The notes under the pieces: model-generated
What the model saw: the letters and a program-made list of their open reading frames with translations, nothing else
The model's database searches: none
What the model was told of the DNA's origin: nothing
Program-made: the position numbers and the translations under genes
IMG/VR virus record: IMGVR_UViG_3300021400_000131
Location: 12,648-76,647 of that record
Strand: one strand, 5' to 3'
DNA: 64,000 bases
Source of the DNA: a virus
Taxonomy: Duplodnaviria > Caudoviricetes
Shown: positions 7,904 through 60,725 of the stretch, one piece after another
Position numbering within the stretch: position 1 is the first letter of the stretch
Layout of the letters: each line of letters opens with the position of its first letter

Positions 7904-9064
7904 ATGGCTAAGAAGCGACTGAGGGACGAGTGGGGTTCGATCACCGAGGTTGACCGCAACGAGAGGTACCGCATCCGCTATTGGGGCAAGGATGAGAGCG
8001 GCACCTATCGACGCATGACCTGCACTGTCCGTGGTACGCGACGGAACGCGGAACGCAAGCGGGCTGAACTGATGCTCGAACACAGCGAGGAAGCGCAATG
8101 CGTCACCGTCGATTACGTCTGGAAGCACTGGTACCTTCCGACTCTTGAGCGGCGCTGCAAAGACGGCGAGATGTCCGACAAGACCGTGAGCCAGTACAAG
8201 AGCCGCTACGGCTCCGCAATATCCGAGAGGTGGGGGCAGGTGCCGTGTGACGGAATCAGGCCACTTGACGTGCAGCAGTGGCTCGACGGCATCAGCTACA
8301 CCAAGGCGAGCCAGTCGCTCAACATGCTCAGGCCAATGCTCGACTACGCCGTTAGATATGGCGAGATACCTTCCAACCCGTTCAGGGAGCGCTATCTGCT
8401 TCCGTCGAAGTCAACGGTCAAGCGCATGGACGATGGCGTATGGAAGCTCGGCGAGCTGAACCAAGTGTGGGAGCATGTGCGCGGAGAGTGGTTCGAGGGT
8501 GCCTTCATATGTGCGGCGTTTGGCGGGTGCCGTGTGGGCGAGTCGATTGGCGTCCAGGTAGGCGACATAAATCGCCTTGACGTTGACGGCCTATGTGTTG
8601 CGGTTGTCAGGGTCGAGCGTCAGGTGAAGAACGCTGGTGGCGTTTCCGAACAGTTGAAGAACCCGCAAAGCAGGAGGCCAATCGTCATTGTCGGCAAGCC
8701 AGCGGAGCGCCTGTGCGAGATTGCCGAAAGCGCATCGATCTGGGTTACTGGCGACGGCTTCGGTGGGCCAACGACACAGTTGAGGCTTGGAACATCATGG
8801 AAGCAGATGGCAGACCGATTGCCAGATGGGATGTGGCACCCGTTCAGGAACCTCAGAAACAGCTACCAGACGTTCATGCGCTGGGAGGTTGGACTTGCCC
8901 CGTACTACATCGAGGAGCTGCTTGGTCACAAGGGAACGACGGTCACCGACAAGCACTATGACAGGCCGGACGAGAGCGCCATCGTTGGCGTCACCGTGGC
9001 GGCATGGGAGGCGTACCTAAAGGCTTTGCGGGCGCACGGAAAAGCACCCTTCGATGCACGTTAA
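7904..9064 (+). CDS. int: Tyrosine integrase
   Basis: Catalytic motifs GCRVGE, HPFRNLRNSY, LLGH, TDKHY; 386 aa. Confidence 0.93.
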   Translation: MAKKRLRDEWGSITEVDRNERYRIRYWGKDESGTYRRMTCTVRGTRRNAERKRAELMLEHSEEAQCVTVDYVWKHWYLPTLERRCKDGEMSDKTVSQYKSRYGSAISERWGQVPCDGIRPLDVQQWLDGISYTKASQSLNMLRPMLDYAVRYGEIPSNPFRERYLLPSKSTVKRMDDGVWKLGELNQVWEHVRGEWFEGAFICAAFGGCRVGESIGVQVGDINRLDVDGLCVAVVRVERQVKNAGGVSEQLKNPQSRRPIVIVGKPAERLCEIAESASIWVTGDGFGGPTTQLRLGTSWKQMADRLPDGMWHPFRNLRNSYQTFMRWEVGLAPYYIEELLGHKGTTVTDKHYDRPDESAIVGVTVAAWEAYLKALRAHGKAPFDAR

Positions 9065-14440: not shown

Positions 14441-14554
14441 GCGCGGTTTTCTCCTTGGGTAATGAAAAAGGCCACCCAGACGGATGGCCTTCGTAGCTGT
14501 TTAGACAACTGTGCTACAGGTAACACTATAGCATTCTTGCTTTAATTTGTCCAC

Positions 14555-28559: not shown

Positions 28560-28578
28560 GTGTGGGCCTCCTATTCTG

Positions 28579-28902
28579 TTATGGGTGGAATGTCAGGGTG
28601 TAAGAGGTGACCCATGAGCTTTCCATGGGCACCCACGACTCGTAGCATGCGTAGGGGCCAAGCTTCGCAAGCTGCTCCTCAAGCGCGTCAACCTCGTCCT
28701 CGTCAGGCTCAGCCTGATAGAGGTCCACGTCGTAGCGCTGAAGCTTCGCGTAGTTGGCGTTGTCGGCAAAAAACTCGCCCTTCTTGAGCCTGCGGTACGA
28801 GAACCACGGGAGGGGCGGAACCTTGCCCTCGGGCCAGCCGCTCTTTGTGCCACGGATGCCGGACTCGCAAAGAGTCGCGTATACCGTTTCGTCAGGCGTC
28901 AT
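28579..28902 (-). CDS. Tail terminator/completion protein
   Basis: Synteny; FFADNANY...YDVDLY pattern. Confidence 0.7.
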   Translation of the reverse strand: MTPDETVYATLCESGIRGTKSGWPEGKVPPLPWFSYRRLKKGEFFADNANYAKLQRYDVDLYQAEPDEDEVDALEEQLAKLGPYACYESWVPMESSWVTSYTLTFHP

Positions 28903-30059: not shown

Positions 30060-30389
30060 TTACTCCTCTAGCAATGCGATGAGCTGTGCCTTCTTGGCAC
30101 CCTTGGGAACGTCGATGCCGCGCTCCTTGGCGAGTGTCTTGAGCGTCGCCACGGTGAGCTTGGAGAGGTCAACCTGCGGGTCTGCCACAGGCTCAGCCTC
30201 GTGCGTAGCCTCCTCGACGGGCGCTGGCTCCGGCTTCTCCTCGTCGATGGCCTCGAAGGTGATGTAGCCGGGAAGCTTCGCATCGATGTAGGCGGCTCGC
30301 TTCTCGGTGGCCTCGAACTGGTCGCCAACGTTGCGGTCGCACTTGGCAACGAAGTCCGCGAAGCGCCGCAATACGGTGACGAGAACCAT
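30060..30389 (-). CDS. Head-associated protein with C-terminal HeH/Rho-N domain
   Basis: DLSKLTVATLKTLAKERGIDVPKGAKKAQLIALL. Confidence 0.75.
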   Translation of the reverse strand: MVLVTVLRRFADFVAKCDRNVGDQFEATEKRAAYIDAKLPGYITFEAIDEEKPEPAPVEEATHEAEPVADPQVDLSKLTVATLKTLAKERGIDVPKGAKKAQLIALLEE

Positions 30390-31759
30390 TACGCGCCGAC
30401 CTTCTTCTTGAGGATGGCCCAGCCGTAGGGATAGACGGGACGGCCATCAAGGGCAGTCAGCACGCGGGTCTTTTCGGTGTTCGTCTCGTAGTCGGACCAC
30501 TGGACCGTGGAGAGCGGCATACCGGGCTGCGTGTTGATGACGTAGTTGTTCCAGTTGCCGAAGATGCCGATGACGTCGCCATCAGAGGCGGCATCGAAGC
30601 TCGGAAGCAGGGCGTCCTCGACAAGGTTGACGTTGCGGCCACGCAGCTTGTACACGGCCTCGTCGTTGAGAACGTCGGCCTTGCCCAGCGGGCGGTTGTT
30701 GTCATCGTGCAGCAGGTCGATGTGCATGCCCCAGGTGGAGTCGCCGAAGGTCCACTCGCCGCCGTCGCGGTACAGGCGGTTGAACACGGCGGTGTTGTAG
30801 AGCAGCGAGTGCCAGAACTTCCAGTCATCGACGTCCTCAGCGGTAACCTCGATGATCGCGGCACGCGGGGCGATGTAGCCAGACTGACCCTCGGTGCCCT
30901 GACCCACGATGCGCGGGTCAACGGTGAGGCCGAGCGGCTGGGTGGTGCCGTTACCACGGAGGATTGCGGCCTCGATTGCCTTGACCATAGACTTCGCCAG
31001 CGCGGGCGGGACCATAGCCTTGAGGTCATCGGTCAGGAGGGCCTGAGCGAGCATGGTGCGGGAGAAGCGGACCTCAAGCTGGTGCCAGCTGAAGCTGAAC
31101 GCGGTCGGGTCCTCTTCCTCGTTGTAGGGAGAGACGTGCTTATCGTCCTCAAGCCACGACGCGGTGAACTCAAGCTGGTTCTCGCGGTAGGTGATGGCAC
31201 CGGGGAGCGAGAGCTTCTGCACCTTGGAGTAGATGTTGCCGTACTCGTCGAGCGGCTGGATGATGCCGCCGATGAAGGAGTGCGGGAAGGCGATGGTGTT
31301 GGTCAGCGTGTTCACGAAGTCGCCAGTGGCAGAGAACTCGCCGTTGATGGCGTTGGTGATGTCGATGTTCGCACGCTGCTGCATCTCGTAGGGCATCGGG
31401 CGGCGGCGCAGGATGTGGTCTGCGAGGGCGCGACGGTACTCCTTGGTGTCGGTGAAGTGCTCAGGCTCGTTCATCGGCTGGATGCTGTGGCGGGTCTGCG
31501 GGACAGGCTCGCTCTGGGCGATGACCTTGCCAGCGCCGGACTTGACGGCATCGAGCTTGGAGCGCTGAAGGCGCGTCTCCGCGTTCTTGCGGCGAATGGC
31601 GTCCTCGGCATAGCCGACCTCGGCCTCAAGCATGTCGATGGTGACGTCCTCGGGAAGCTCCTCAGCGGCGAGCGCGTCATTGAGTAGGGACTGACGCTCC
31701 TCAAGAGCGTCGCGGTCGAGAGCACGGTACTCAGCCGCGCTCATGGGGGTGAACTCCAT
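30389..31759 (-). CDS. Major capsid protein (HK97 fold, N-terminal delta domain)
   Basis: Start MEFTPM at 31759 with RBS AGGAAAGGAG; ILRGNGTTQPLG motif; follows the protease. Confidence 0.9.
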   Translation of the reverse strand: MEFTPMSAAEYRALDRDALEERQSLLNDALAAEELPEDVTIDMLEAEVGYAEDAIRRKNAETRLQRSKLDAVKSGAGKVIAQSEPVPQTRHSIQPMNEPEHFTDTKEYRRALADHILRRRPMPYEMQQRANIDITNAINGEFSATGDFVNTLTNTIAFPHSFIGGIIQPLDEYGNIYSKVQKLSLPGAITYRENQLEFTASWLEDDKHVSPYNEEEDPTAFSFSWHQLEVRFSRTMLAQALLTDDLKAMVPPALAKSMVKAIEAAILRGNGTTQPLGLTVDPRIVGQGTEGQSGYIAPRAAIIEVTAEDVDDWKFWHSLLYNTAVFNRLYRDGGEWTFGDSTWGMHIDLLHDDNNRPLGKADVLNDEAVYKLRGRNVNLVEDALLPSFDAASDGDVIGIFGNWNNYVINTQPGMPLSTVQWSDYETNTEKTRVLTALDGRPVYPYGWAILKKKVGA

Positions 31760-31796
31760 AGCCCACTCCTTTCCTCTTTGGTTGTGATTGCTTTGG

Positions 31797-32423
31797 CTAC
31801 AGGAGGGAAAGCCCCTTGAGCCGTTCTGCAAGGGCGGACTTGCGCTCTTGCATCTCCTCGGCACGCCGCAGCACCTCCTGCTGCTTGCGCCTAGCCTCAA
31901 TCGCTCCGTCGAGGTAGGAACGTGCGCTTATCTCGGTGTTGGGGTTCGCAGGGATGCTCACCGCCGACACGTCGAATACCTTGCTGATTCTGGTGATGGT
32001 CGAGTGGATGGTCCCGTCCTCGTCCTCGTCCCAGTCGAAGCCGTCCTCGGCGATGACAAAGCCAAAGCTCATCTCGTCGATGAGGCCATTCTTGATGGAC
32101 TCGTAGAGGTCGCGTCCCTCGCGGCAACCGCCAAGGTACGCCTCGCACCACCCGCCGTGCTCGTCGATGCCGACGCTCAGCGAGTTGTTGCGCTGGCGTG
32201 CGAGTGGAGCGCCATCGTGGTTGAGCTGGAAGATCACGTCGCTCATGTTTGCCCCGTCGAGGGCGTGAGAGTCGACCGTCTCGTACCAGTCGGACATAAG
32301 CTCGTACTCCTGCCCGAACGTGGTGAAGTACCCCTTTACCTTGTAGGAGTCATCGCCGTCGACGGAGCGGAAGTTGTTGGCAGCGAAGGTACGGTACTGC
32401 CTGTCATTCGGAAGATATGGCAT
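31797..32423 (-). CDS. HK97-family prohead protease
   Basis: VKGYFTTF...QLNHD...MSFGF...DVSAVSIPANPNTEI. Confidence 0.92.
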   Translation of the reverse strand: MPYLPNDRQYRTFAANNFRSVDGDDSYKVKGYFTTFGQEYELMSDWYETVDSHALDGANMSDVIFQLNHDGAPLARQRNNSLSVGIDEHGGWCEAYLGGCREGRDLYESIKNGLIDEMSFGFVIAEDGFDWDEDEDGTIHSTITRISKVFDVSAVSIPANPNTEISARSYLDGAIEARRKQQEVLRRAEEMQERKSALAERLKGLSLL

Positions 32424-33717
32424 CGTCATCCTCCTCTGCGTCGTCAGATGAAGAAGGTCCGTCATCGTCTGACGGGCCTTCGTCTGTGTCTGTGTCTGTG
32501 TCTGTCTGCGAGCCGAGCGGGTGACCGCCGCTCGTCGCAACGATGTTGTTGTTCTCGTCGAGAAGGATGAACTCGCCGCGAAGGATGCGCATGTCCCCAC
32601 CGGGGATGTGCGGCATCTGTAGGATGTCGGCAGCTTGGTTGAACGACATCGCGGCGCGGTCCATCATCGACTCGATGACCTTGCGCTTGCTCTCCGGCGT
32701 GGCGTACTCAAGGTAGCTGGACGAGAACATGATGCGGTTGCCGTGGCGGCGCTGGATGGGAGTGATGAGCATCTTGGTAAGCTGCTCGCCCAGCATCAGC
32801 GCGAACGGCTCGATGCATCCCTCGTAGAACGCACCCCACTGCTCTTCCGTGTAGTCGTTCGTGAGGATGTGTTCGTTGATGCCGAAGTACGTGTAGAGCG
32901 CCTTGTCGATGCGGGCCATCTCGCCCTCGTCGATGGTGTAGCTCTGCTCCTTGATCTGCTGAATGGACTCCCACGTGTTGTCGTAGACCATCATGCCGCT
33001 GGTGTTGCGCGGCCCAAGGTTGGCCTCGCCGAACTTCTCGCGCTTCTTGTCCATCTGGTCCGGCTGCACCAGTCCGACCAGCTTGCCGATGAAGCGGATG
33101 CGTGCGCCGTTCTTCAGCGCCAGCTCCTCGGCCTGACGCTGCGCGTCCATGAGGCGGAGCGTCGATGTGAGCGGGATGTTCTTGCCGCCGAAGATGTCGC
33201 TGTAGAGCTGGAAGCGGGTGAGGATGCCGACTTGGTAGAAGCCGAACGCCTGAACCTCGCCGCTCGCAAGGTGGAACACGATGAACGGCTCACCCTCGTA
33301 CTCCACGACCTCGGCAGAAGTCGGCTTCAGAGGGTAGAGGCCAATCACCCGGTAGTCCCTGTCGAGCTGCGGAACGACGTATGCCGTGGTGTCCGTGTAC
33401 AGAATCGTCGCAAGGCGGCGAAGGAAGTCCGGCCACGTCATCTCGTCGTTGGGCCACGTCTCGAAGAGCCTCTGCACGCGCGGGTTGACGCTGGTTCCAC
33501 CCTCTGGCATCACGAACTCGGGCTTGAGCTTGGAGCACGACAAGGCGATGCGCTCGACGATGGCGCGTGTCTGCGCCTGCTCGTAGAGGGAGCCGTCGAA
33601 CGCGGAGAACGTCGGTGCCGTCTCCGTGAACGTCTGGAAGCCAGTTGTGGTGGTGAGGTTGGATTGCTGCGTCTGCCTGCGCCAAGAGGCGGGGACCAAT
33701 TTAGACAAGAATCCCAT
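32404..33717 (-). CDS. Portal protein (HK97 family)
   Basis: RAIVERIALSCSKL...WPNDEMTWPDF...; synteny terminase-portal-protease-capsid. Confidence 0.92.
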   Translation of the reverse strand: MGFLSKLVPASWRRQTQQSNLTTTTGFQTFTETAPTFSAFDGSLYEQAQTRAIVERIALSCSKLKPEFVMPEGGTSVNPRVQRLFETWPNDEMTWPDFLRRLATILYTDTTAYVVPQLDRDYRVIGLYPLKPTSAEVVEYEGEPFIVFHLASGEVQAFGFYQVGILTRFQLYSDIFGGKNIPLTSTLRLMDAQRQAEELALKNGARIRFIGKLVGLVQPDQMDKKREKFGEANLGPRNTSGMMVYDNTWESIQQIKEQSYTIDEGEMARIDKALYTYFGINEHILTNDYTEEQWGAFYEGCIEPFALMLGEQLTKMLITPIQRRHGNRIMFSSSYLEYATPESKRKVIESMMDRAAMSFNQAADILQMPHIPGGDMRILRGEFILLDENNNIVATSGGHPLGSQTDTDTDTDEGPSDDDGPSSSDDAEEDDDAISSE

Positions 33718-33753
33718 GACACACACTATATCTTGTATTAGCCGTAATGTCAA
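33718..33753 (-). promoter_or_regulatory. Near-consensus housekeeping-sigma promoter giving a leaderless portal mRNA
   Basis: TTGACA (33753-33748), 17 bp, TATAGT (33730-33725), 7 nt, ATG; no SD. Confidence 0.8.
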
Positions 33754-33779
33754 CCGTTAATTGGCACAATATATTGTGG
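33723..33779. promoter_or_regulatory. Tandem NrdR-box-like operators at the portal promoter
   Basis: acaCTATATCTTGtat (33723) and gcaCAATATATTGtgg (33764), 41 bp apart; match acaCwAtATaTwGtg. Confidence 0.7.
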
Positions 33780-33796
33780 TTATGCTAGAATGTAGG

Positions 33797-33985
33797 GAGT
33801 GAACCCCGGAAGCCTCTGGCTGACCTCCTCTCCCAGCCACGCGCAACTCTAGGGTGTTGTCGTGCCAGTGACGGCGCACAAGCTGGCACAGAGAGAAGCA
33901 GTGGGGCCTCAATCGCCTGTTGTGCCTACTCACCACTGCGCTAGAAGGGGACGGCGATCTCGGTTGCCGCCCCCTTTCTCTTCGC
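33797..33985 (+). ncRNA. Candidate sRNA between terL and portal
   Basis: Extended -10 TGcTAGAAT (33783-33791), three hairpins, GC terminator 33947-33974 followed by a U-rich tract. Confidence 0.55.
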
Positions 33986-34046
33986 TTCTTTCTTTTATAT
34001 TTTCTTTCTTCTCTTCTCTTTCCTCCCAGTTGCTACCCATACAGAC

Positions 34047-34105
34047 AGGAAAGAGAGTGAAATTCTAAGACCCATCCAAGTCTTAGAATTTCCTCTCTCT
34101 TTCCT
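34047..34105. terminator. Long inverted repeat downstream of terL
   Basis: AGGAAAGAGAG-T-GAAATTCTAAGAC / GTCTTAGAATTTC-CT-CTCTCTTTCCT, stem of about 24 bp. Confidence 0.65.
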
Positions 34106-34203
34106 ACTGTTAGGTATGTGCTGTGACTAGTACGTTGTACTTGCTTGTGAGAGGGCTGGTTTTCGACAGGGCGATGTTGAAACCTTGCGGCGCTGTTGAA
34201 AAG

Positions 34204-35934
34204 CTACCAGCCGATGGCCTGCATGTACTCCTCCTCGTTGCGCTTCAGGGCACCGTAGGCGCACAGCTCGGCCATGTAGCCATCGATGCGGTTCTGTGGG
34301 CGCAGCTCCTTCTTCTGTGGGAAGTAGTTGTCGTTGTTGTCCGCGCGGGCGTTGACGTTGGAGCGGCACCACTGAAGGACTGGGTTGTCATTGTCGATGA
34401 TGCGCTTGGCACGGAGGTCAAGGCGGTGCTCCTTCATGAGCGGGCTGATGACCTTGGCGTACTGCTCGACGGGGCGTGCCCTGCTCTCCCCCACGAGCCG
34501 CTGAAGCTCAAGCTCGGTGTGGTCATCGACGTGCCACTTGTCGTAGCCCACCGCGAACGGGTACACGCCCTCGTCCACAAGCTCGCGCAGCCACTCGATG
34601 ATGACCATCTGGTTGACCTTGTTGCCGGGGACGATGCGTATCAGCCCGTCAGCGGCCCACTGGTGGTACGGCACGCCGTCCCGCTCCTTGAAGGAGTTGC
34701 TGTTAATCTCAACCTGGTCCTCGGCAATCCAGAACATGGCTCGCTCGTAGATGTGGTCATCGTCTGGCTTCATGCACATCATGACGGCGGCATTGAGGTC
34801 GCCACGGTCAGCGAGGTCGAAGCCGACGATGCCGTAGCGGAACTGCGTGGCGTCGAACGTGTACGTCTCGCGGTTGACGCACTCCTCATAGGTGAGGAAC
34901 GATGCGTAGGAGTTGGACGGCAGGTTCATCTCCTTGGTCAGCAGCGACGGCATACGCGCCGGGGACTGCTGCGCCTTGCTCACGCGGTTGCGCAGGTAGT
35001 CCCACTCCTTCGTTATGCCCAATCCCGGTGAAGCCTTGGGCCACATGCGCTCGTCCCATACCTCGTCCCTGCTGTCCAACTCGTAGAGGAACGGGAGGAA
35101 GGTGTCATCCTCGATCTTGCCGTCAAGCCATCCGTAGGCGTACTTCTTGCGCTCGTCCCAGATGCCCTCGCGCACGTAGTTCTCGGTGCTGATGATGAAG
35201 AGCATCGGCGACTTGCGCGATGACATGGACTCGGTGAGCAGGTCGTAGGTTGCGCCGCCGTCCTCGCATGCGGCAAGCTCGTCAAGCACCGCGAAGCTCG
35301 TGTTGAGTCCGTCAAGCTTCTTGGAGTTGGAGCTGATGGTGCAGAGGTAGCTAAGCGTCTTGTCGTAGTTGAGGCCGGAGATTCCGCGCTTCTGCACCAT
35401 GCCGCGACGGATGCGCTTCTTGAGCTGCGGTGACATCTCGACCATGGAGTTTGTCGCGCCGTAGCACAGACGCGCCTGGCTCTCGGACGTCGCGCCGTTG
35501 TAGACCTCCGCACCTCCCTCGCCGTCGCTGGTGAGCATGTAGAGGTTGAGCGCGGCCAAGAGCGACGTCTTGCCCGACTTTCTCGCCCACTCTACCAGCA
35601 CTTCTCTGAACTGGCGTGCGTTGTCATCGTCCACGAAGCCGAAGGCCGTCTCGACAACGACGCGCTCGTAGGGAGCGAGCACGAACGGCTGGCCCATCTT
35701 CTTTGCGCTAGGGATGCGGCAGAACTTCTCGATGAAGCGCACGGGTCGCGTGGCGGCGTCGATGTCAAAGTGCCACTGCTTGTATCCATTGCTGAAGCGC
35801 GGCAGCATTATCTCAGCGAGCTTCTTTACATGGCGGCTCACGGTATAATTGCCGTCCATGCATCCAAGAAAGTACTGCTCAGCGTCGGAGCGTCCGTGCT
35901 CGTCAACGTAAACGAACGGCTCCCAGCTAGGCAT
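34204..35934 (-). CDS. terL: Terminase large subunit (cos/HK97-phi13 type)
   Basis: Walker A WARKSGKT, Walker B VLDE, nuclease GFDL...RIDG. Confidence 0.95.
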   Translation of the reverse strand: MPSWEPFVYVDEHGRSDAEQYFLGCMDGNYTVSRHVKKLAEIMLPRFSNGYKQWHFDIDAATRPVRFIEKFCRIPSAKKMGQPFVLAPYERVVVETAFGFVDDDNARQFREVLVEWARKSGKTSLLAALNLYMLTSDGEGGAEVYNGATSESQARLCYGATNSMVEMSPQLKKRIRRGMVQKRGISGLNYDKTLSYLCTISSNSKKLDGLNTSFAVLDELAACEDGGATYDLLTESMSSRKSPMLFIISTENYVREGIWDERKKYAYGWLDGKIEDDTFLPFLYELDSRDEVWDERMWPKASPGLGITKEWDYLRNRVSKAQQSPARMPSLLTKEMNLPSNSYASFLTYEECVNRETYTFDATQFRYGIVGFDLADRGDLNAAVMMCMKPDDDHIYERAMFWIAEDQVEINSNSFKERDGVPYHQWAADGLIRIVPGNKVNQMVIIEWLRELVDEGVYPFAVGYDKWHVDDHTELELQRLVGESRARPVEQYAKVISPLMKEHRLDLRAKRIIDNDNPVLQWCRSNVNARADNNDNYFPQKKELRPQNRIDGYMAELCAYGALKRNEEEYMQAIGW

Positions 35935-36277
35935 TGAAGGCATCGAACTCGTCCTCCTCCTCTGGTGCCGTGGCGTTCTTGGCGAACGATGACACCTTCT
36001 TGGCGAGGTCACCCAGTCGACCGATGGCCTTCTGGTAAGCCTTGAACTCGGCACGCTCGACGCGCTCGATGTGGCGGTTGTTGACGGTGCCGACCTCCTT
36101 CTCCTCCATGACGCCCTTCTCCTGTATTACGAGACGCAGCGCCTCGGTCATGGATGCGAGCGCGTCATACTCAGTGAGGAGATCGTCTAGCAGCGCCTTG
36201 TCAAAGCCCGTGAGTCCGTCCGACTCTCGGTGCAGGCGGTCAAGGCGCGGCGTGTCGTACTTCTTCTTTGTTGCCAT
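35927..36277 (-). CDS. terS: Terminase small subunit
   Basis: Overlaps the terL start; helical P27-like, ends EEDEFDAF. Confidence 0.8.
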   Translation of the reverse strand: MATKKKYDTPRLDRLHRESDGLTGFDKALLDDLLTEYDALASMTEALRLVIQEKGVMEEKEVGTVNNRHIERVERAEFKAYQKAIGRLGDLAKKVSSFAKNATAPEEEDEFDAFNA

Positions 36278-36350
36278 ACCTCTCCTTGCGACAGAAGGAG
36301 CCATCCCTACGTTTCCGCAGGTAGGCGACTCACTCGGTTGTGGGTCGAAG

Positions 36351-36692
36351 CTAGAGGTGTGGCGTTTCCTTCCTGATGACGCGCCCATGCTCGTCGAACG
36401 CGACGCGCATTTCGGTAGTGCCGCTGTGGACGAATGCGTGGCAGTCTTGGCAAAGGCGCTGGAAGTTCTCGTATGCGAGCGTCACTGACGGGTCATCAAT
36501 GTTGTCGGGGTTGAGGTGTACCTTGTGGTGAACGACCTTGGCTGGCGTGAGTTTGCCCTGCTCAAAGCACCGTTCGCACATGCCAGGGGGAACGATGCCC
36601 CACGGTGTGTCAATGGGGCGCTCCATATATGCCTTGCGGTTGTGAAGCCATGCTGGTGAGTGGTAGAAGCTCGTTGCGAACTTTCGTGACAT
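36351..36692 (-). CDS. Packaging-associated HNH endonuclease (HK97 gp74-like)
   Basis: CERC...VVHHKVHL...NFQRLCQDCHAFVH next to terS. Confidence 0.88.
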   Translation of the reverse strand: MSRKFATSFYHSPAWLHNRKAYMERPIDTPWGIVPPGMCERCFEQGKLTPAKVVHHKVHLNPDNIDDPSVTLAYENFQRLCQDCHAFVHSGTTEMRVAFDEHGRVIRKETPHL

Positions 36693-36711
36693 ACTCCCCC
36701 GCCATTCCTAT

Positions 36712-36758
36712 GCACTATATCTTGTGGTTTTCTCAAGTTTGCAAACTATATATTGTGG
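36712..36758. promoter_or_regulatory. Tandem NrdR-box-like operators upstream of HNH-terS-terL
   Basis: gcaCTATATCTTGtgg (36712) and aaaCTATATATTGtgg (36743), 31 bp apart; each contains a TATAGT -10 candidate on the minus strand. Confidence 0.75.
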
Positions 36759-36804
36759 TTTCCCTAACTATCCTACACAGGAAAACGAGAAATTTCAAAC
36801 TATC

Positions 36805-36885
36805 ACGCGCACCAAAAATTGACTGGGGGCGCCGGTCCCACTGGAAAGTTGCATGATTTATGCACTATGGGGGCGGTTAACCGTT
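36805..36885. other. Putative cos (cohesive-end) region
   Basis: GC-rich GGGGGCGCCGGTCCC (36825-36839) in AT-rich DNA upstream of HNH/terS; resembles 3'-cos sites of HK97-like phages. Confidence 0.4.
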
Positions 36886-37000
36886 TTAGCTTGCACACAA
36901 ACTTTCATACCCTACCTTTTCGGTGGGAATATGTTCCACAATTCCTAGCGTTTCGGTAGGTTTTAGTCTTTATTCCTACTGTATCAGTAGGGTTTTATTG

Positions 37001-37160
37001 TTAGGTACCTTATTGTTAGGTACCTTACCTTTAGGTACCTGATTGTTAGGTACCTTTTGATTAAAAAGACAATCGCTAGGTACCTGATTGTTAGGTACCT
37101 AGTAGTTAGGTACCTACTGATAGCAAATTATTTGCTAGGTACCTAGCAGTTAGGTACCTA
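37001..37160. repeat. 15-bp-period array of palindromic YTAGGTACCT
   Basis: Copies at 37001, 37016, 37031, 37046, 37076, 37091, 37106, 37135, 37150. Confidence 0.95.
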
Positions 37161-37509
37161 GCAATTGCCAATTTTGGCATGATTTATTTTTATGCAATGA
37201 CCAATGCATTTCTATGCAGTATTTTCTGCGTTATTCAATAATTCGGGCAATATCACGGCATTTTATGCGCTGTTTTGCATTGATTTTGAATTATGTATCC
37301 AATTCCTCATATTTCAGTAAGTCTAGGCACTACTACCCCACATTTGCGTTGAATGGCCTTAAATCGCCTTAGAATGGCCTTAAACGCGATTGTGTACATA
37401 GTGTGTACGTTTGAGTTAGGTTGACATTTAAACCTAACCATGCTATTTATCGCGCGCGCACGCGTTACCTATCGTTATTGGGTCGATATACCGAACACTA
37501 TGTATGTTA

Positions 37510-37563
37510 TTACTCACACTGTGCATTAATACTCACATTGTGTAATATTACTCACACTGTGCA
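37510..37563. repeat. Three 19-bp-period repeats TACTCACAYTGTGYA
   Basis: Copies at 37511, 37530, 37549. Confidence 0.9.
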
Positions 37564-37769
37564 ATATCTTTTCCGATTCTATTTTTCGTGCCTCAAATGG
37601 CAATTGTGTAGGAATTGTGTAGATAATCTGACGTCTACAAAACAAGGTAAAGATTTAACCTTAGTTAACACCACATTCTACCTGCTTAAATGCGACTCGA
37701 TCGAACGTTTCCGCAGGTCAAAGTGCCTGTTTTGCGTTTCCGCTGGTAGATGCCTATATCTTGTACACA

Positions 37770-58850: not shown

Positions 58851-59644
58851 CGTCCCATCTCCTTGAGGTGCGCGATGCCGATGTGCTCCCACTGCTCTAT
58901 GGATGCGTCCATCGTCCTAGACAGGAGCGCCACCTGCTCGCCACGGCGCATACCGCTGAGCGATTCGACGTGGCGGACCTCCGAGAGGTCGCGTGCGATG
59001 GAGTTCCACGACTCCGCCTGTAGGTAGTAGCGCGTGACCATCTCCACGGTGAGGTCATCGGCTATCTTCGCCATCCCGTGAACGACGTCCCACGCCTCGT
59101 CAAGCGGCTCCTGAAGCTCAGCGACGTCCACAAGCTCATGCTGGGCGTCAAGCATCTCGTCCACCTTGCGCATGGGGTCAAGGATGCCGTGCTTGGAGTG
59201 CGGGCCAACGTTGTAGCCCTGCGGGCCGATGGCCTGCTTCTTCAGCTCCAAGTCCTCCTCGATGTGCCGTATTTGCAGCGCTGCGTCGCGCGCCGCGTCA
59301 AGAACCTCGCGTACCGTCAACTCTCCCCCATCCCTACGCGCCCTCGGGTGGCTGGTGAGGTGCCAGCCACCGCAGTACGGGCATTTGTAGACATAAAGGG
59401 GACTCTTGGAGTAGTGCCTTTCGATGTATTTGAGGGCTGATTGGCGGTTCTTGAAGCGCGACTTCCTGCCGCACGCGGAGTGACCTTCGTTAGCGTAGCA
59501 TTCCGTGACCCTCTTGTCACGCCGCTCGCGCTCGCGCTTGCGCTTGCGGTTTACTTTCTTCATTTTTGCCAGACGTCGCTCGGTCTTTGCGGGAAGGTAG
59601 CGCTTGTCCTCGTGCCACCTGCTGCCGTGCTTCGCCTTCGACAT
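58847..59644 (-). CDS. Zn-finger fused to RinA/ArpU-like transcriptional activator
   Basis: CGRKSRF...YKCPYCGGWHLTSH, then helical domain ending VTRYYLQAESWNSIA. Confidence 0.55.
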   Translation of the reverse strand: MSKAKHGSRWHEDKRYLPAKTERRLAKMKKVNRKRKRERERRDKRVTECYANEGHSACGRKSRFKNRQSALKYIERHYSKSPLYVYKCPYCGGWHLTSHPRARRDGGELTVREVLDAARDAALQIRHIEEDLELKKQAIGPQGYNVGPHSKHGILDPMRKVDEMLDAQHELVDVAELQEPLDEAWDVVHGMAKIADDLTVEMVTRYYLQAESWNSIARDLSEVRHVESLSGMRRGEQVALLSRTMDASIEQWEHIGIAHLKEMGR

Positions 59645-60165
59645 TATTTTCCCGTACTGCCAAGCCCGCTGTCTCCGCGCTCGCCGCCCGAAATCTCATC
59701 GACCTCGACGTAGGTGGGGTAGGCCACTGGCATAACGACGAGCTGCGTCACCTTGTCACCGGCCTTGAACTCCTTTGGGTAGTCGCCGTGGTTGTAGACG
59801 CGAAGGCGGATTGAGCCAGTGTAGCCCTCGTCGATGACACCCTCGACGTTGATGCACGCCTTGATGTTGAGGCCGGACTTGCTCTTGACCATGCCGACCG
59901 TGCCGCGAGGGAGCTGCACGTGCACGCCTGTGTCGATGTCCACGGAGCTGTGCGCTGGCACAGTGAAGCCCTCCATGCAGCAAAGGTCAGCGCCCGCATC
60001 CGTCGCGTGCGCACGGACGGGAAGCTTTGCGCCTTCGTCAAGGGTGACGCTCACGGTGGGGAGCCACGGCGATGGCGGCTCGGCCCGCGCTGGCTGAATG
60101 ATGTTGATGCAGCGCCAAACGACGCCCTCGACGTACTCCTCGAACTTCTCCTTCAGCTTGCCCAT
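59644..60165 (-). CDS. dut: Trimeric dUTPase
   Basis: AGADL, DTG, KSKSGL, GVIDEGYTG, VTQLV, ERGDSGLGSTG motifs. Confidence 0.95.
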   Translation of the reverse strand: MGKLKEKFEEYVEGVVWRCINIIQPARAEPPSPWLPTVSVTLDEGAKLPVRAHATDAGADLCCMEGFTVPAHSSVDIDTGVHVQLPRGTVGMVKSKSGLNIKACINVEGVIDEGYTGSIRLRVYNHGDYPKEFKAGDKVTQLVVMPVAYPTYVEVDEISGGERGDSGLGSTGK

Positions 60166-60170
60166 GTTGG

Positions 60171-60725
60171 CTACTCCTTTCCAACACCCGTGATGCGCTC
60201 GTGCAGCCCGCACGGCACGAACTCGTTGCAACCGCCGTGGATGACGCACTTGGGCTGCATGAGGTCTGCGAACTCGGGGTTCGCCTGAACGACGGCATCG
60301 CGTATCTTGGTCATGACCATGCGCGTCTCGACAGACGCCTGACCGCAGAGCCGCATTCGTGCCATCTGCATGAGTTCCTGCGCGTTGATGTCCATGACGT
60401 GCGTGACAAAGGCCCCTTGCGGGGCCTCGTTGCGGTCGTACTTGTCTTGTCGGTCGTTGCGCTGCGACGAGACGTAGTGCTCGACGCCGAACTTGTGGCG
60501 GCAGAAATGCACACTCACCCAGTAGGGAACCTCCATGCGAATGGTGAACATCAGCGTGCGGATGGGCGAGTGCTCGCACCGAAGCATCCTGCGCTTCCAC
60601 TCGTCGGTCACCTCGCTGCCCGCATACCGCTTGCCTATGGTGTTGAGTGCCAGCAGCTTGCAGCGCTTCCAATCATCCTCTGTCGGGTGCCGCAGCAGCT
60701 CGACCCTAATTCCGTCGCTACTCAT
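60171..60725 (-). CDS. thyX: FAD-dependent thymidylate synthase (short phage ThyX)
   Basis: EHSPI, VSVHFCRH, VSSQRND, NAQEL...RLCGQAS motifs. Confidence 0.8.
   Translation of the reverse strand: MSSDGIRVELLRHPTEDDWKRCKLLALNTIGKRYAGSEVTDEWKRRMLRCEHSPIRTLMFTIRMEVPYWVSVHFCRHKFGVEHYVSSQRNDRQDKYDRNEAPQGAFVTHVMDINAQELMQMARMRLCGQASVETRMVMTKIRDAVVQANPEFADLMQPKCVIHGGCNEFVPCGLHERITGVGKE

Follow-up and report, generated by a model that had tools for sequence, protein, structure and literature searches.

Four closely similar 16-bp sites, arranged as two tandem pairs, overlap the predicted promoters of the packaging and head operons of a rumen phage, and every sequence test that we ran supports their identification as NrdR boxes, the operators of a repressor described in the cited literature as dedicated to ribonucleotide reductase (RNR) genes. 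The phage is represented by the IMG/VR virus record IMGVR_UViG_3300021400_000131 (76,647 bp, 59% GC, with direct terminal repeats and rated 100% complete), of which we analyzed bases 12648-76647, a stretch of 64,000 nucleotides hereafter called the window; positions refer to the window unless a record is named. We give slightly better than even credence to the reading that operators of the host NrdR have been recruited onto the packaging and head promoters, where they would gate virion genes by the deoxynucleoside triphosphate (dNTP) and replication state, or the energy state, of the cell.

The packaging pair lies upstream of the genes for an HNH endonuclease, a putative small terminase and the large terminase (TerL), and consists of a distal box at 36743-36758 and a proximal box at 36712-36727. 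The portal pair lies upstream of the portal, prohead protease and major capsid genes, with its distal box at 33764-33779 and its proximal box at 33723-33738. These positions, together with the centre-to-centre distances of 31 bp (packaging) and 41 bp (portal), had been given in a preliminary description of the same DNA and were confirmed from the sequence; the corresponding spacers measure 15 bp (36728-36742) and 25 bp (33739-33763). NrdR binding requires an integer number of helical turns between boxes, with spacer classes of 15-16 and 25-26 bp, the latter occurring naturally in streptococci (PMC12051234). Six positions of the box are critical, namely C4, A6, A8, T9, T11 and G13 (PMC13584703). 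All six are present in each of the four phage boxes, which carry two or three mismatches to the 16-bp NrdR consensus (two in the distal packaging box) and are the sole matches with at most three mismatches in the 76,647-bp genome, besides a 2-bp-shifted overlapping register at 33721.

To score the sites, we used a position weight matrix (PWM) built from 47 boxes located just upstream of nrdD in 31 genomes of the Atopobiaceae, the candidate host family, with phage sequences excluded. A comparison with host nrd promoters had been proposed in the preliminary description, and it came out in favor of the boxes: the distal and proximal packaging boxes reach 23.0 and 20.4 bits and the distal and proximal portal boxes 23.9 and 22.2 bits, against a median of 19.9 bits for the training boxes themselves. 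The next-best site in the phage scores 11.3 bits, and in 100 Markov-simulated genomes the mean maximum was 13.2 bits and the highest score never exceeded 19.95 bits. The core motif shared by the boxes occurs eight times where 0.98 matches are expected, a count that none of 100 shuffles reached.

A fifth, single site had been listed at 37751. The sequence (37751-37766) does exist and has an 11-mer in common with two of the boxes, yet it lacks the conserved flanking positions 2, 3, 14 and 15, shows six mismatches to the consensus in a hand alignment and is absent from the list of a scan allowing up to four mismatches. With 4.7 bits and no partner at 31/32 or 41/42 bp, it was rejected as a NrdR box.

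The overlap of the sites with TATAGT -10 elements, also noted previously, was borne out, since the hexamer lies within both proximal boxes and within the distal HNH box (three of the four boxes). The predicted portal promoter reads TTGACA-17-TATAGT on the minus strand (33753-33725); at 11/12 it justifies its earlier description as near-perfect, and among the genome's three strong sigma-70-type matches it ranks first. Its -35 hexamer (33748-33753), invariant in the alignment of portal promoters, falls within the 25-bp spacer between the boxes, its -10 (33730-33725) is included in the proximal box, and the -35 is closely preceded by the distal box. The -10 of the packaging promoter (36719-36714, minus strand) is likewise within the proximal box, and the HNH start codon follows after about 21 nt. 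Overlap with the promoter and the transcription start is classical for NrdR boxes (PMC9110341). Because the portal ATG, at 33717, comes only 7 nt past the -10, the portal mRNA is probably leaderless. On the opposite strand, a divergent extended -10 (TGnTAnAnT, 33783-33791, plus strand), kept in four lineages, abuts the distal portal box, such that a single pair would govern the divergent promoter region as well. A candidate small transcript could start there (about 33798-33985, plus strand, between terL and portal) and ends in a GC hairpin followed by a T-tract; its CU-rich segment is retained where the remainder diverges, and no Rfam family matched 33783-33985.

We then compared the phage with relatives of its portal in IMG/VR, which show 49-85% identity and fall into two groups, with and without box pairs (L-numbers, such as L001, L022 or L113, label the compared contigs and records; L058 is L001, and L068 is L002). 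Five lineages, L001/L002, L070, L089, L016 and L010, have retained pairs at these promoters. The portal boxes are 41 bp apart in L001/L002, L070 and L089 and 42 bp apart in L016, while L010 has a 31-bp pair that has moved upstream of the portal -35; the 31-bp pair before the HNH gene is kept in L001/L002, L089 and L016, the contigs that reach that far. The sequences of the boxes vary between lineages. Over the 16 distinct boxes compared, positions 3, 4, 5, 6, 8, 9, 11 and 13 are invariant, which includes all six NrdR-critical positions, whereas positions 7 and 16 are free and positions 1, 10 and 12 partly variable. Conservation of the pairs in relatives, which the preliminary description had made a test of its idea, thus holds in these five lineages and fails in most portal relatives, as discussed below.

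Neither nrdR nor an ATP-cone was found in the complete genome, and profile searches for the RNR large subunit (PF02867, PF13597) gave no match there. The phage thus has no NrdR of its own to bind the sites and no nrd genes for them to control, and the pairs would regulate the head and packaging operons instead, as the earlier description had it. As to the cell in which they would be read, the best lead, drawn from portal sequences, is a host among the Atopobiaceae: portal relatives occur in 15 of 272 Atopobiaceae genomes, some of them on megabase contigs, and the portal of a sheep-ileum Atopobiaceae metagenome-assembled genome (MAG) is 56% identical. Within the family, 59 of 61 genomes have nrdR, and nrdD genes are preceded by tandem boxes 31-32 bp apart, two of whose 16-mers are identical to phage boxes; an identical copy of the 33764-33779 16-mer, for instance, stands upstream of nrdD in L048. 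Two further strong consensus matches lie away from nrd genes in an Atopobiaceae MAG (L022, L023).

Similar pairs are found in other viruses. When IMG/VR was scanned by exact pattern for two near-consensus boxes at a distance of 31-42 bp, 34 contigs came up, for a chance expectation that we roughly estimate at well below one, and an RNR large-subunit gene is encoded in only four of these records. Among contigs unrelated to the clade studied here, the pair stands between terL and an SPP1-type portal gene in L071, between a terL-like gene and a phosphoesterase gene followed by portal in L073, between portal and scaffold-like and major capsid genes in L079, and directly beside head or packaging genes in L059 and L072, while L087 has one pair before terL and another before the major capsid gene. 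Further contigs carry the pair near primase or helicase genes. When the L071 region was compared by BLAST with cultured phages, only the pair itself matched, in the Streptococcus thermophilus phage CHPC663 (L113, record 28576-28651), where boxes of 23.9 and 27.6 bits separated by a 16-bp spacer head the replication module. In the pneumococcal phage EJ-1 (L114, record 8663-8709) a similar site overlaps an annotated extended -10, and similar sequences occur in many streptococcal prophages (Javan), about 25 streptococcal phage records matching the region. Two RNR-encoding viral contigs, L064 (13681-13743 and 14413-14459) and L088 (3209-3255 and 3925-3987), carry overlapping boxes in arrays with a 15-bp offset, an interleaved double-pair layout that differs from the simple pairs seen elsewhere. 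In the open-access literature we found no published description of NrdR boxes at phage virion genes, in line with the preliminary description, which knew of none, and no published discussion of the streptococcal-phage pairs.

From the observed sites, their quality, spacing, promoter overlap and conservation, we infer NrdR occupancy, repression and timing, that is, every step from binding onward, as follows. NrdR that carries ATP alone forms oligomers unable to bind DNA, whereas with dATP/ATP or dATP/ADP it forms a tetramer that occupies a box pair and obstructs the promoter (PMC9110341). When DNA synthesis is slow or energy low, NrdR loaded with dATP plus ATP or ADP would bind each pair as a tetramer, bend the DNA and occlude the -10 and -35, so that the head and packaging genes stay off; the head-operon pair would also cover the small divergent transcript. 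Once phage DNA replication lowers dATP, NrdR would turn into ATP-only oligomers and lose DNA binding, and both promoters would fire, thus coupling virion production to active DNA synthesis. Rising phage genome copies could in addition titrate NrdR, which would be useful to a phage without its own RNR. Strong derepression of a host NrdR regulon accompanies lytic infection by the pneumococcal phage SpSL1 (PMC6755750). With this observation and the published biochemistry of NrdR, a model of repression until dATP is drained is coherent, and a dNTP-sensing function of the pairs would fit what is known of NrdR. The switch put forward in the preliminary description is thereby upheld in part: the identity of the boxes withstands the sequence tests, while the fifth site falls away and the premise of a temperate phage is unsupported, since no tyrosine or serine recombinase (PF00589, PF00239) was matched in a record rated 100% complete and the phage is not evidently temperate.

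Extending the argument to the other viruses, we tentatively propose, with rather less assurance than for the rumen phage itself, that NrdR is not RNR-specific in practice and that many unrelated phages have independently brought promoters of their own under its operators, using the host dATP/ATP sensor as a general replication or energy checkpoint, with titration boosting host dNTP synthesis. Held with the same reserve, this proposal would cover head and packaging modules in the rumen clade and in several low-GC viral lineages, as well as replication modules in streptococcal phages. Pairs on the virion promoters of a phage that lacks RNR point to an undescribed timing of morphogenesis via the host nucleotide pool, and their recurrence in unrelated phages strengthens this idea, which would bear on predictions of how phages behave in gut bacteria that grow slowly or starve, and on the interpretation of predicted NrdR regulons that contain prophage genes. 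It is also directly testable, given short operators, an easily purified NrdR that cross-binds consensus boxes, and cultured streptococcal phages with analogous pairs.

Several observations weigh against recruitment of host NrdR at these promoters. Most portal relatives (L003-L009, L011-L015, L017-L020 and the prophages L092-L110) share the promoter but lack boxes, indicating that the sites are dispensable for the phage family. The box-less group includes prophages in Atopobiaceae chromosomes, and many of its members have a hairpin-terminator leader or other palindromes instead; NrdR pairs are thus one choice among several control devices that can replace each other here. The genome's third strong promoter, a late-type one in the lysis region (TGGACA-17-TATAGT with an extended -10, 14553-14525, minus strand), has no boxes and is followed by a hairpin-terminator leader, so NrdR cannot account for all late control. 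The in vitro affinity of S. coelicolor NrdR was about 100-fold lower for spacers of 25-26 bp than for those of 15-16 bp, although E. coli NrdR bound 26-27-bp spacers well (PMC12051234); in light of the S. coelicolor result, the portal pair may be a weak operator, weaker than the packaging pair. The statistics have their own limits: the boxes that trained the PWM had been pre-selected for consensus similarity, and the right half of the proximal boxes coincides with a -10 and discriminator also present in box-less relatives, so that part of the proximal-box match comes free. Finally, the host is placed only to the family, through portals that are 38-56% identical, and a CRISPR-spacer search for a host gave 30-32-bp window matches in Atopobiaceae genomes, none of them in a repeat array, so that these are not spacers and allow no host call.

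How far could the same sites be explained otherwise? They might act mainly as a decoy that, with increasing numbers of phage genomes, titrates a scarce host repressor and derepresses host RNR in support of phage DNA synthesis, any effect on the phage promoters being secondary. A phage that has no RNR, yet carries a dUTPase and a ThyX-like gene, depends on the host dNTP supply, its boxes match the consensus at least as well as the median host-family nrdD box, and 30 of the 34 pair-bearing viral records have no RNR large-subunit gene. A decoy, though, needs no promoter overlap, yet across five lineages, with three geometries, the pairs have stayed locked to the -10 and -35 of these two promoters, and there are only two pairs per genome. 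We consider titration unlikely as the main role of the boxes, while noting that it is compatible with their use as operators. The sites could also be promoter sequence and nothing more, AT-rich stretches resembling -10 and UP elements that stand out in a genome of 59% GC and bind no repressor: three of the four boxes include TATAGT, the -10 is what promoters of actinobacteria depend on, and box-less relatives share a similar -10 and discriminator. The distal boxes, however, are full palindromes outside the -10 and -35 of their promoters, the invariant C4 and G13 contribute nothing to a -10, a set of four sites scoring above 20 bits is far beyond the null, and the third strong promoter shares the -10 but has no box, all of which makes promoter sequence alone a very improbable explanation.

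It is also conceivable that the palindromes are used by a DNA-binding protein of the phage, such as a GerE/LuxR-type helix-turn-helix (HTH) protein or a small early HTH protein acting as late-gene repressor or activator, their likeness to NrdR boxes being coincidence or mimicry. The phage does encode HTH proteins, including one of the GerE/LuxR type, half-site-like motifs cluster in the AT-rich stretch 37380-37620, and box-less relatives have other palindromes at the same place, as if the promoter region were a general operator slot. This explanation would have to account for the presence of all six NrdR-critical positions among the invariants of 16 distinct boxes, for spacings that are the NrdR-specific 15 and 25-26 bp, and for identical 16-mers upstream of host-family nrdD genes; moreover, phages that are unrelated and differ widely in GC content have such pairs, and a single phage regulator common to all of them is unlikely, while any NrdR-bearing cell would bind such sites regardless. 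We regard a phage regulator as quite unlikely, less so than promoter sequence alone and more so than the decoy, and continue to favor operators for the host NrdR.

The genes under the two pairs were largely as described before: HNH endonuclease, TerL, portal, protease and capsid assignments are backed by Pfam, and that of the small terminase is by position only. All are on the minus strand. Behind the packaging pair come the HNH endonuclease (36351-36692, PF01844), the putative small terminase (35927-36388, an open reading frame (ORF) without Pfam match) and TerL (34204-36054, PF03354 and PF20441). A non-coding gap of roughly 490 bp separates terL from portal and contains a bidirectional terminator-like hairpin (34059-34092) 3′ of terL, between the packaging operon and the portal promoter. 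There follow portal (32404-33717, PF04860), the S78 prohead protease (31797-32600, PF04586) and the major capsid protein (30389-31900, PF05065), and after capsid the tail and lysis genes. TerL has a best identity of about 40% among GenBank phages, indicating that there is no close relative in culture. The TerL ORF is 616 aa long in the window and in L058 (806-2656) and 993 aa in L068 (806-3787), where the in-frame insertion of ~377 aa is probably an intein. Elsewhere the phage encodes a DnaB-like helicase and a dUTPase. The preliminary description had mentioned dut and thyX; the former was confirmed, and the ThyX-like frame is a weak match, above cut-off. The dUTPase domain is C-terminal in a long ORF (59644-60672, minus strand), and the 191-aa frame with weak ThyX (PF02511) matches overlaps that ORF in another frame; dut and a short thyX-like gene are thus adjacent or overlapping, the true dut start being probably internal. 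About 20 further ORFs mostly gave no Pfam match, and a Rfam scan of the window at gathering thresholds matched no family.

Several other features of this region were recorded. In leaderless relatives (L001/L002, L003, L010 and L014-L018) the -10 lies 6-8 nt from the portal ATG, whereas L004-L009 and L011-L013 have a hairpin leader before portal. In L004, L005, L007, L009 and L011-L013 the promoter and a conserved CATGGGA start are followed by a hairpin-terminator leader and a re-initiated portal start; depending on the phage, this conserved start sequence codes for protein or is leader RNA. Downstream of the lysis-region promoter (14441-14553, minus strand) we found a hairpin, an intrinsic terminator and a Shine-Dalgarno sequence, then a lysis-region gene. 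The 9-mer TTGTCTAAA has exactly two copies in the window, each just downstream of a TATAGT promoter (lysis region and portal start), and this sharing hints at an antitermination-type late control alongside NrdR. A ~900-bp AT-rich non-coding region (36760-37700) separates the early block from the packaging operon. It contains about ten phased AGGTACCT palindromes at 37000-37160 and, at 37500-37565, three tandem repeats with a CACA-N-TGTG core followed by GAGTA, of which near-identical tandem copies occur in two Atopobiaceae genomes (L128, L129), a small extra clue to the host family; the repeats of this region are probably operators of another DNA-binding protein. Two independent relatives, the contigs L001 and L002, start at the identical base, ~103 bp upstream of the HNH box pair (window about 36822-36845), and contigs of another metagenome run end near 36841. 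These shared ends fit a physical genome end (cos site) beside the HNH-terminase operon or, alternatively, an assembly break. Contigs of four runs over the stretch show strain variants and contig breaks only.

The phage sites resemble those by which NrdR controls RNR operons (S. coelicolor nrdRJ and nrdAB; E. coli nrdAB, nrdHIEF and nrdDG; L. monocytogenes; S. pneumoniae) in their 16-bp boxes and critical positions, and likewise in tandem pairing, spacers of 15-16 or 25-26 bp and promoter overlap (PMC9110341, PMC12051234, PMC13584703). The classical regulons have RNR downstream, whereas the phage, which has neither nrdR nor RNR, has HNH and terminase genes downstream of one pair and portal, protease and capsid genes downstream of the other. 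This missing RNR operon argues against membership in a classical regulon, and not against NrdR binding. A precedent for such borrowing is LexA, which controls lytic genes in temperate phages such as CTXphi or GIL01. There, as in the arrangement proposed here, operators of a host-sensing repressor lie on phage promoters and host physiology sets the timing; LexA co-option, however, senses DNA damage, whereas the sensor here would be the dATP/ATP pool, the targets are virion genes and the phage has no detectable integrase. The proposed logic, virion genes on only once phage DNA replicates, is also that of T4, in which late transcription is coupled to replication through the sliding clamp, gp33 and gp55. 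T4 achieves this with a phage sigma factor and co-activator loaded at forks, whereas the rumen phage would rely on metabolite depletion read by a host repressor. The streptococcal phages (CHPC663, EJ-1 and the Javan prophages) have near-consensus pairs likewise away from nrd genes; their pairs precede early, replication-module or regulator genes, whereas those of the rumen phage precede head and packaging genes.

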